A stretch of 18,442 bases of DNA. Source: a virus. Its lineage: Duplodnaviria > Heunggongvirae > Uroviricota > Caudoviricetes. Positions 15,001 to 18,442 of the stretch are shown here, piece after piece. The stretch lies in the IMG/VR virus record IMGVR_UViG_2526164602_000012. The stretch is one strand, 5' to 3'. Every line of letters begins with the position of its first letter. The first letter of the stretch is position 1. A program made the position numbers.

Positions 15001-18000
15001 AAAACAATACTATTAAATACAAAGCGTTGTAAAAAAACGCCCCGTTTTAGAACAAATTGTATTGACCAAGTTAAGTACATATCGTACTATTTAACCATCA
15101 GCAGGACGCTGGAAGCCAAATGGAACAGACTGGCAGGCTCTTTAAACAACGTCGACTCTCGACTACGTGGCTGAAAAGCCAGATCACCCAACCACATAAG
15201 CTGTGGGATGCAATGCCGAAGCAACCGTCTCAGGAGGAGCTTCGAGATTGCATCGCCAAAGTTTATTCGGGAGGAATCTATGTCCAGAAAAACAGAATTT
15301 AAAGGCACCGCAGCTTCTCGCCGTAGAGCTCGTCGCGCAAACCTGCAAAGTCAGGAGGCGATTAGCTCCGACAAACTACACAGGCCAACCCCATCACGAG
15401 TGGTCTTACAATGCAAACGCAAACCAGCAATGAGAGCAGAAGTAATAACACTGACAACGTTGACCAGAAAATATGAAGGCTCAACTTGTCTTCCAAATGT
15501 AGCTCTTTACGCGGCAGGCTACCGTAAATCCAAACAACTGACAGCAAGATGACTTGTGTTGGTCGCCAGAAAATGAAATTAGGCAGCAAACCACTTATTT
15601 GAGGTGATATATGGAATTTCATGAAAGTGCGATTTGTGATTTTCGCGCTAACGCAAATTCAGTAAAACCACAGCCAATTGCAGTTCTTTTTAAAACAATG
15701 GGTGCGTGGGCTGTTTTATGCTTCGCCGCTGACGACACTGACGCAAGAATGGCAATAGGACAAGAGATGGAGATGGACCCGACAAACGATGAATTCATAA
15801 TTTATGGCGCTCCATCTAATTACTTACTTGATACCTGCAACATTTACAACAAGGCTGTGAACCGCCCCGGAAATCCTGGAGACTAAACTCCCTGAGAAAG
15901 AGGTAAACAGGATGACTAAAAATACTCGTTTTTCCCCCGAAGTCCGTCAGCGGGCGATTCGTATGGTTCTGGAAAGTCAGGATGAATATGACTCACAGTG
16001 GGCGGCAATTTGTTCCATTGCCCCAAAGATTGGCTGTACGCCGGAGACTCTGCGTGTCTGGGTTCGCCAGCATGAGCGGGATACCGGGGGCGGTGATGGT
16101 GGGCTCACCAGCGCTGAACGTCAGCGTCTGAAAGAGCTGGAACGTGAAAATCGTGAACTGCGCCGCAGTAACGATATCCTTCGCCAGGCTTCCGCTTATT
16201 TTGCGAAGGCGGAGTTCGACCGCCTCTGGAAAAAATGATGCCACTGCTGGATAAGCTGCGTGAGCAGTACGGGGTCGGACCGGTATGCAGCGAACTGCAT
16301 ATTGCCCCGTCAACGTATTACCATTGTCAGCAACAGCGACATCATCCGGATAAACGCAGTGCCCGTGCGCAGCACGACGACTGGCTGAAGAGAGAGATAC
16401 AGCGCGTATACGATGAAAATCATCAGGTGTACGGTGTGCGTAAAGTCTGGCGTCAGTTGTTACGGGAAGGAATCAGGGTGGCCAGATGTACAGTGGCACG
16501 TCTCATGGCGGTTATGGGACTTGCCGGTGTTCTCCGGGGTAAAAAGGTCCGTACGACCATCAGCCGGAAAGCCGTTGCCGCAGGCGACCGCGTAAACCGT
16601 CAGTTCGTGGCAGAACGACCTGACCAGCTGTGGGTGGCTGATTTTACTTACGTCAGCACATGGCAGGGCTTCGTCTATGTGGCGTTTATCATTGATGTGT
16701 TTGCCGGATACATCGTGGGGTGGCGGGTCTCATCGTCTATGGAAACGACATTCGTGCTGGATGCGCTGGAGCAGGCGTTGTGGGCCCGTCGTCCGTCTGG
16801 CACCATCCATCACAGCGATAAAGGCTCTCAGTATGTGTCACTAGCCTATACGGAGCGACTAAAAGAAGCCGGATTACTGGCATCAACAGGGAGTACAGGC
16901 GACTCGTATGACAACGCGATGGCTGAGAGCATCAATGGTCTTTACAAAGCGGAGGTAATACACCGTAAGAGCTGGAAAAACCGTGCAGAAGTGGAACTGG
17001 CCACACTAACGTGGGTGGACTGGTATAACAATCGACGATTGCTGGGAAGGCTGGGCCATACTCCTCCGGCAGAAGCAGAAAAAGCTTATTATGCTTCCAT
17101 CGGAAACGATGATCTGGCAGCCTGAGTTCACAGATAAAACACTCTCCAGGAAACCCGCGGCGGTTCACTGCCTGATGGTGGCCTTTATTTTTGGCATAAA
17201 CAACAGAATAAACACAGCACTGTGTATTCATTCCAACGAGTGAATACACGGAGCAATGTCGCTCGTAACTAAACAGGAGCCGACTTGTTCTGATTATTGG
17301 AAATCTTCCTTGCCCTCCAATGTGAGGGCGATTTTTTTATCTGTGAGGATATGAACAGATGTCAAACATCAAAAAAATACATCATTGATTACGACTGGAA
17401 AGCATCAATAGAAATTGAAATCGACCATGACGTAATGACAGAGGAAAAACTTCACCAGATTAATAATTTCTGGTCAGACTCTGGATACCGACTCAATAAA
17501 CACGGCTCTTTATTAAATGCTGTATTAATCATGCTGGCGCAACATGCTCTGCTTATAGCAATTTCAAGCGACTTAAATGCATATGGTGTTGTGTGTGAGT
17601 TCGACTGGAATGATGGAAATGGTCAGGAAGGATGGCCTTCAATGGATGGTAGCGAAGGAATAAGAATTACCGATATCGATACATCAGGAATATTTGATTC
17701 AGATGATATGACTATCAAAGCCGCCTGAGCGCGGCGTTACCGCATACCAATAACGCTTCACTTGAGGCGTTTTTCGTATGTATAAATAAGGAGCACACCA
17801 TGCAATATGCCATTGCAGGGTGGCCTGTTGCTGGCTGCCCTTCCGAATCTTTACTTGAACGAATCACCCGTAAATTACGTGACGGATGGAAACGCCTTAT
17901 CGACATACTTAATCAGCCAGGAGTCCCAAAAAATGGATCAAACACTTATGGCTATCCAGACTAAATTCACTATCGCCACTTTTATTGGCGATGAAAGATG

Positions 18001-18442
18001 TTTCGTGAGGCCGTCGACGCTTATAAAAATGGATATTAATACTGAAACTGAGATCAAGCAAAAGCATTCACTAACCCCCTTTCCTGTTTTCCTAATCAGC
18101 CCGGCATTTCGCGGGCGATATTTTCACAGCTATTTCAGGAGTTCAGCCATGAACGCTTATTACATTCAGGATCGTCTTGAGGCTCAGAGCTGGACGCGTC
18201 ACTACCAGCAGATCGCCCGTGAAGAGAAAGAGGCAGAACTGGCAGACGACATGGGAAAAGGTCTGCCCCAGCACCTGTTTGAATCACTCTGCATCAATCA
18301 TTTGCAACGCCACGGGGCCAGCAAAAAAGCCATTACCCGTGCGTTTGATGACGATGTTGAGTTTCAGGAGCGCATGGCAGAACACATCCGGTACATGGTT
18401 GAAACCATTGCTCACCACCAGGTTGATATTGATTCAGAGGTA

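Follow-up and report, generated by a model that had tools for sequence, protein, structure and literature searches.

An apparent Kil'-Gam fusion in a draft prophage contig of Escherichia coli O157:H7 TW11039 very probably reflects homopolymer miscalls

Introduction

Does the Stx2c-type prophage of Escherichia coli O157:H7 TW11039 carry a naturally inactivated kil gene whose remnant is joined in frame to gam, or is this arrangement a property of the sequence record? Kil of phage lambda is a 47-residue helix-turn-helix peptide that blocks assembly of the FtsZ ring in a ZipA-dependent manner, and derepression of the pL promoter leads to killing of the host by Kil (PMC3961180). The second helix of the peptide comprises residues 21-38, and activity is abolished when this helix is deleted (PMC11762379). 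A kil- phage allele has previously been made by deletion of codons 20-26 (PMC3961180).

The window, i.e., the whole stretch of 18,442 nucleotides analyzed here, is the complete contig AKLW01000047.1 (GCA_000267165.1) from the draft genome of TW11039. In this study, we compared its kil region with other copies of the locus, examined where else in the window similar lesions occur, and weighed the possible origins of the two missing bases in kil.

Results

The kil gene as deposited

The coordinates of kil and of its two lesions were obtained by alignment with lambda (NC_001416) and with the Sakai prophage Sp5, by translation, and by Pfam comparison:

17933..18074, plus strand: kil; 142 nt versus 144 nt, with codons 1-21 intact and the frame lost from codon 22
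17994..17996, plus strand: first kil deletion; A3, where all other copies have A4
18025..18029, plus strand: second kil deletion; A5, where all other copies have A6; the long-gam ATG begins with the final A of this tract

A preliminary description of this DNA had set the kil start at the ATG at 17933 and had taken the first 21 codons to match lambda Kil; on translation and alignment, the residues are identical. It had also proposed that one A is missing at each of two A-tracts and that the expected kil stop lies 2 nt nearer the start. Both proposals held: alignment with lambda kil and Sp5 placed AAA for AAAA at 17994-17996 and AAAAA for AAAAAA at 18025-18029, and the stop codon TAA falls at 18072-18074. 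The pairwise alignment to lambda kil is thus interrupted by two 1-nt gaps rather than being gapless.

The gene occupies its usual place in the pL operon, in the order ea10-cIII-kil-gam; the final 1.1 kb of the window represent the distal part of this operon in a lambdoid prophage. Against the Lambda_Kil profile (PF06301), the open reading frame (ORF) that begins at the kil start covers positions 1-21 of 31 with 41.7 bits, and intact Kil covers positions 1-31 with 72.3 bits, so that the deposited gene gives no full-length match to this profile. Likewise, the helix-turn-helix core (helix 1, residues 4-18; turn, G19-D20; helix 2, residues 21-38) is incomplete as deposited and becomes complete when both As are restored.

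The reading frame into gam

Downstream of the lesions, three overlapping ORFs extend to the last position of the contig:

17933..18442, plus strand: apparent Kil'-Gam fusion ORF; 170 codons by translation, without a stop inside the contig
18029..18442, plus strand: long gam ORF; 138 codons, as in the lambda annotation, with ATG at 18029-18031, unaltered except for real polymorphisms; its stop lies just past the contig end
18149..18442, plus strand: short gam ORF; 98 aa, with ATG at 18149-18151 preceded by a separate AGGAG at 18137-18141; PGAP annotates this form in O157 genomes, and the Pfam Gam profile corresponds to it

Because of the two -1 shifts, the kil start is in frame with the long-gam ATG (18029). 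The stop-free frame described earlier, running from the kil start through this ATG to the end of the window, was recovered by translation as a single open frame. It consists of Kil residues 1-21, about 10-11 linker residues, and 138 residues of long Gam. The contig terminates 2 nt before the gam stop, and the ORF ends at the last sense codon.

The Gam part is complete with respect to its Pfam profile (PF06064), in that residues 73-170 of the ORF match positions 1-98 of 98 (E=1e-62). The start codon and Shine-Dalgarno sequence of the short form are identical to those of lambda and Sp5, and the gene caller also uses this start. One substitution in gam, 18296 G>A (Gam D90N), was considered as a private change and rejected: it is a real allele that is common to strain 472 and about ten other genomes and is present in the 99.5% group.

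Two patches of private changes

A base-by-base comparison of the whole window was made against strain 472 (NZ_CP018245.1), whose Stx2c prophage is 99.8% identical to it. Private indels were confined to two patches. The patch that includes kil contains the following features, in addition to the two kil deletions:

17309..18024, no strand assigned: error-dense patch; within its 716 bp, five homopolymer indels and 3-4 substitutions are private, which amounts to about 12 differences per kb
17332..17338, plus strand: private 1-nt insertion, T6 to T7, upstream of ea10
17371..17377, plus strand: private 1-nt insertion, A6 to A7, in ea10 codons 5-6
17777, plus strand: private 1-nt deletion, TT to T, in the spacer between ea10 and cIII, 23 nt before the cIII ATG; TT in 122/122 loci
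17800..17964, plus strand: cIII; intact ORF of 54 aa that overlaps the kil start

Relative to strain 472, zero indels were found over about 17 kb outside the two patches; five occurred in 693 bp (17332-18024), all of them in homopolymers. In a simulation, the placement of five of the six indel events within 693 bp of 18.4 kb had a probability of about 5e-5 by chance. The five indels are of both signs (+T, +A, -T, -A, and -A) and change run lengths from 6 to 7, 6 to 7, 2 to 1, 4 to 3, and 6 to 5.

The effect of these indels is not limited to kil. Through the A7 insertion, the product of the native ea10 start (17359) changes from MSNIKKY... to MSNIKKIHH followed by a stop. An out-of-frame upstream ATG (17351) fortuitously restores the ea10 ORF, which was called as MNRCQTSKKY... 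An exact-protein look-up of this Ea10 variant returned a single record, AKLW01000047.1.

Substitutions in the patch were also largely confined to this record. Among the 97-124 loci covering the tail of the contig, the five indels as well as 17309 T>C, 17484 A>G, and 17763 C>T occur in the window alone, and 17639 C>T is common to only 3/109 IMG/VR loci. The patch substitutions copy the neighboring base. Apart from these differences, the sequence of the patch is identical to strains 472, 7409, F1273, and AR-0427; the last 418 bp of the window are identical to strain 472.

The other patch lies far from kil, in a gene for a phage N6-adenine methyltransferase:

8315..8351, no strand assigned: second cluster of private indels; one T deletion and four insertions of a single A, the latter within 14 nt, net +3

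This burst of single As adjoins an A5 run. Four separate single-A insertions within 14 nt, together with a T deletion, would be very hard to produce by mutation, and the cluster serves as an internal control which shows that the contig has low-quality patches. A substitution cluster at 60-67 was also inspected as a suspect and was set aside as a real allele present in other genomes. The flow count in the 454 order TACG is left unchanged by all private substitutions and by the whole 8315-8351 cluster (p about 0.02-0.05). This property speaks weakly for miscalls, as it would also be expected of about one half of substitutions and of 36% of non-run insertions placed at random.

Searches for the same alleles elsewhere

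Neither kil deletion was recovered from any other sequence searched. In 1,509 complete E. coli genomes, 0 of 1,957 places had an identity of at least 99% over 17950-18070, and the best complete-genome match over this interval was 98.4%, which corresponds to exactly both gaps. Among 292 phage records, the best match has all three additional bases, i.e., both kil As and the T at 17777. When IMG/VR, GTDB genome representatives, and JGI metagenomes were scanned for the exact pattern, 0 contigs had the kil double deletion. In the same kind of scan, 0 IMG/VR contigs had either single deletion, versus at least 120 contigs with the wild-type pattern.

The remaining private indels gave a similar result. 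The two insertions in the ea10 region were found in 0/1,733 places. The methyltransferase-gene cluster was found in 0/2,091 places, with a best match of 96.2% that reflects all five gaps.

Nearest relatives and the IS1203 insertion

An insertion sequence stands between the error-dense tail and the remaining prophage:

15858..17167, plus strand: IS1203; 1,310 bp, flanked by the duplicated 3-bp target CTG at 15855-15857 and 17168-17170

The IS1203 copy in the contig, itself a repeat, has no indels. We considered whether strains 7409, F1273, and AR-0427 are carriers of this insertion from the same clone, and rejected this, as the sites differ. The IS of 7409 and F1273 is inserted 142 bp upstream of the site in the window; AR-0427 has a different IS3-family variant, located 3 bp upstream and with the target duplication AGG. 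The insertions in the window, in 7409/F1273, and in AR-0427 are therefore independent events into one small ORF.

Strains 472, 7409, F1273, and AR-0427 have the same base as one another at every window-private position within 17171-18442, and in all four ea10, cIII, kil (WP_000372937.1), and gam are intact. Because these near-identical relatives agree at every differing position, the differences of the window are derived and unique to its record.

Source of the record

The AKLW00000000 entry represents E. coli O157:H7 TW11039 as 5.6 Mb in 71 contigs (PMC3593324). The draft genome is dated 2012. Strains of this project were sequenced either by Illumina alone and assembled with Velvet, or by Illumina plus 454 FLX/XLR 3-kb paired ends and assembled with Celera; six project strains have 47-71 contigs, versus roughly 400-1,300 in the others (PMC3593324). 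Judging from these contig counts and from the crossing of IS1203, TW11039 appears to be one of the 454 plus Illumina hybrids: its contig count is low, and an Illumina assembly with 300-bp inserts could not have spanned the 1,310-bp multicopy IS1203 that lies within the contig.

The kil deletions are situated 449 nt and 418 nt from the 3' end of the contig, and the lesions of the patch lie 418-1,111 nt from that end. The module from ea10 to gam is multicopy, occurring in up to 6 places per genome and in 2-3 places in many O157 strains.

Discussion

Origin of the two missing bases

We infer that the kil deletions are, with high probability, homopolymer miscalls in the record rather than mutations of the strain, the source chemistry being deduced in the same way. 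The variant is absent from independent sequences of the locus, including those of the nearest relatives, and the accompanying changes are +/-1 changes of mononucleotide runs, of both signs, that cluster in patches. The preliminary description had named homopolymer sequencing error as its alternative. This alternative is the best explanation of deletions that are private, clustered, near a contig end, and derived from a project that was partly based on 454 sequencing. Its other proposal, that kil of a resident prophage was inactivated with a Kil'-Gam protein as the product, was not supported, as the deletions are private to one draft contig and belong to a 716-bp patch with indels of both signs.

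The miscalls might have arisen as follows. The tail beyond IS1203 (ea10-cIII-kil-gam) was likely covered thinly, at a point where the assembler would run out at a repeat. Homopolymer lengths would then have been miscalled by one, up or down, as is typical of flow-based (454) sequencing. Two such miscalls would have landed in kil and, by chance, brought the kil frame into the long gam frame. In the real prophage, the two tracts are most likely A4 and A6, and normal Kil (WP_000372937.1), cIII, Ea10, and Gam would be encoded. Counting against error, the Illumina reads of a hybrid assembly normally correct homopolymer errors, so low or ambiguous coverage must be assumed; the absence of indels from the repeated IS1203 also counts against it.

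If the deletions were real, TW11039 would have a kil-null Stx2c-type prophage in which the kil start leads to a 170-aa Kil(1-21)-linker-GamL protein, with short Gam still made from its own ribosome-binding site. The deposited sequence reads in this way, and it is biologically reasonable that a resident prophage should have a toxic gene inactivated. As helix 2 is needed for Kil activity (PMC11762379), a frameshift at codon 22 would be null; as Kil is lethal on pL derepression (PMC3961180), its loss could be tolerable or favored in a resident prophage. Some decay is real, given that a genuine IS1203 insertion with target duplication lies just upstream in the pL operon. However, this scenario needs about nine mutations to have arisen independently within 716 bp in a single strain, when none of the patch changes occurs in the four complete O157 genomes, the remaining contig is without isolated indels, and neither deletion is seen in about 2,000 other kil copies. 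Moreover, the other patch indels fall at the ea10 start and in two spacers, where the sequence is non-toxic or non-coding, and selection against kil thus fails to explain the cluster. We consider real deletions very unlikely. Homopolymer slippage and transitions also arise by real mutation, e.g., in mismatch-repair-deficient strains, but a mutator background was rejected because it predicts transitions and homopolymer indels scattered throughout the contig and not in two patches. We also rejected programmed or transcriptional slippage at the A-tracts, as the tracts are short (A4 and A6) and the change occurs only in the DNA record of one contig.

A mixed origin, part real and part error, would be expected if reads from two or three paralogous copies of the prophage had been merged into the consensus of the tail, or if the tail came from a diverged and decaying second copy. 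The multicopy state of the ea10-gam module speaks in favor of such an origin, as does the occurrence of genuine variation in the tail, i.e., the allele at 18296 and the shared 17639 C>T. But a collapsed consensus shows only alleles that exist in some copy, and no sampled copy has any of the five indels or of at least three of the substitutions. A paralog old enough to have gathered nine changes should, in turn, recur in other clonal O157:H7 genomes. These considerations make a mixture extremely unlikely, and miscalling of homopolymers remains the reading that we prefer.

Implications

Public databases, and the collections built from them, continue to include draft contigs of the pyrosequencing era, in which patches of homopolymer miscalls give rise to apparent pseudogenes, gene fusions, and altered N-termini. 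The Ea10 variant of the TW11039 contig has been propagated into protein collections as a unique sequence.

Were the deletions true, they would define, in a clinical or bovine O157:H7 isolate, a natural kil-null Stx2c prophage with an enlarged Gam species, in which two slippage events fused the N-terminal helix of Kil in frame to long Gam. Loss of Kil would remove the FtsZ/ZipA-dependent inhibition of division upon induction. Gam function would hardly be affected, because the 98-residue form has its own AGGAG and its own ATG at 18149. The finding would be useful yet unsurprising, because kil is dispensable for lambda growth, and the locus would be an ordinary pseudogene whose read-through ORF is incidental, rather than the source of a novel type of protein.

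Comparison with known systems

The deposited kil can be compared with two alleles. Against the O157 allele (WP_000372937.1), 142/144 nt align with zero substitutions. Against lambda kil (PF06301; NP_040619.1), there is one substitution, G/A at 18009, and the first 21 residues are identical. The gene has the same place in the pL operon and overlaps the end of cIII and the start of long gam, as in lambda and Sp5. Unlike lambda Kil, helix 2 and the C-terminus are not encoded as deposited, with one A short in each of two A-tracts.

Compared with lambda Gam, the RecBCD inhibitor known in 138-aa and 98-aa forms, the gam of the window is intact in coding and differs only by the allelic changes A56T, L62I, E76G, D90N, and S101A; the Kil' N-terminal extension is a by-product of the two missing bases.

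At the level of the whole prophage, the contig aligns to the Stx2c-type prophage of O157:H7 strain 472 through stx2-Q-nin-P/O-cII-cro-cI-N-ea10-cIII-kil-gam, and A at 18296 is common to both. The two differ in the site of IS1203, which lies in the small ORF between N and ea10 in the window and in the antirepressor gene in strain 472, and the two private indel patches are present in the window only. In their character, these patches resemble the homopolymer miscalls of 454 sequencing, a chemistry attributed to TW11039 on the basis of project contig counts: run lengths change by +/-1, substituted bases copy adjacent ones, a burst of As stands beside an A5 run, and all such changes are confined to patches.

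Private indels in methyltransferase and ea10

Two genes of the window bear small indels that alter the predicted N-terminus of the product.

7855-8385, minus strand: phage N6-adenine methyltransferase gene, with an indel cluster at 8315-8351
17351-17728: ea10 ORF as called

The methyltransferase cluster consists of one T deletion and four separate single-A insertions, the latter within 14 nt, for a net change of +3; the ORF is still open, with about 12 codons near the N-terminus scrambled. The cluster is private to the window contig, the top match among 2,091 places reaching 96.2%, and is almost certainly a low-quality patch. 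In the dam-ninB region, the window also differs from strain 472, a near-identical Stx2c prophage reference, at 8250, 8713, 8856-8857 and 8885. The T at 8250 looks private (21 of 21 loci carry another base), as does the C at 8713 (6 of 6). These differences may extend the low-quality patch.

In ea10, the native start (ATG 17359) is destroyed by an A6-to-A7 insertion, and the ORF is rescued by an out-of-frame ATG upstream, at 17351. As a result, gene callers give a unique Ea10 with the N-terminus MNRCQTSKKY instead of MSNIKKY, and public protein collections contain this artefactual protein.

Other differences, some shared with other genomes

At the contig 5' end, eight substitutions relative to strain 472 fall within 58 bp (60-117), in the SASA esterase/DUF6645 gene. 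Three complete genomes match window positions 20-160 with a single mismatch. Most of the substitutions are thus a genuine alternative allele, and the 5' end is not error-dense, unlike the 3' end.

In gam, G>A at 18296 changes Asp90 of Gam (numbered on the 138-aa long ORF) to Asn and removes a GATC site. The change is a real allele: the A also occurs in strain 472 and in some ten further O157 genomes (99.5% group).

A group of tRNA genes contains one further difference from strain 472.

2631-2874, minus strand: tRNA genes between Q and stx2A, three in all: Arg-tct, Arg-tcg and one with a CAT anticodon

RefSeq labels the CAT-anticodon tRNA as tRNA-Ile. At 2651, within tRNA-Arg(tct), the window has G and strain 472 has T.

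IS3-family insertions between N and ea10

O157 prophages carry at least three independent IS3-family insertions in the small ORF that separates the N region from ea10.

15858-17167, window: IS1203, target-site duplication CTG at 15855-15857 and 17168-17170
about 1717-3026, locus coordinates, strains 7409 and F1273 (L125/L126): IS1203
1356-2665, locus coordinates, strain AR-0427 (L127): mosaic IS variant, orfB about 3% diverged

The IS1203 of 7409 and F1273 lies 142 bp upstream of the window insertion site, and the AR-0427 element 3 bp upstream, with target duplication AGG. The small ORF thus seems to be a hot spot for insertion within the pL operon, where an IS would be polar on ea10-cIII-kil-gam-bet-exo.
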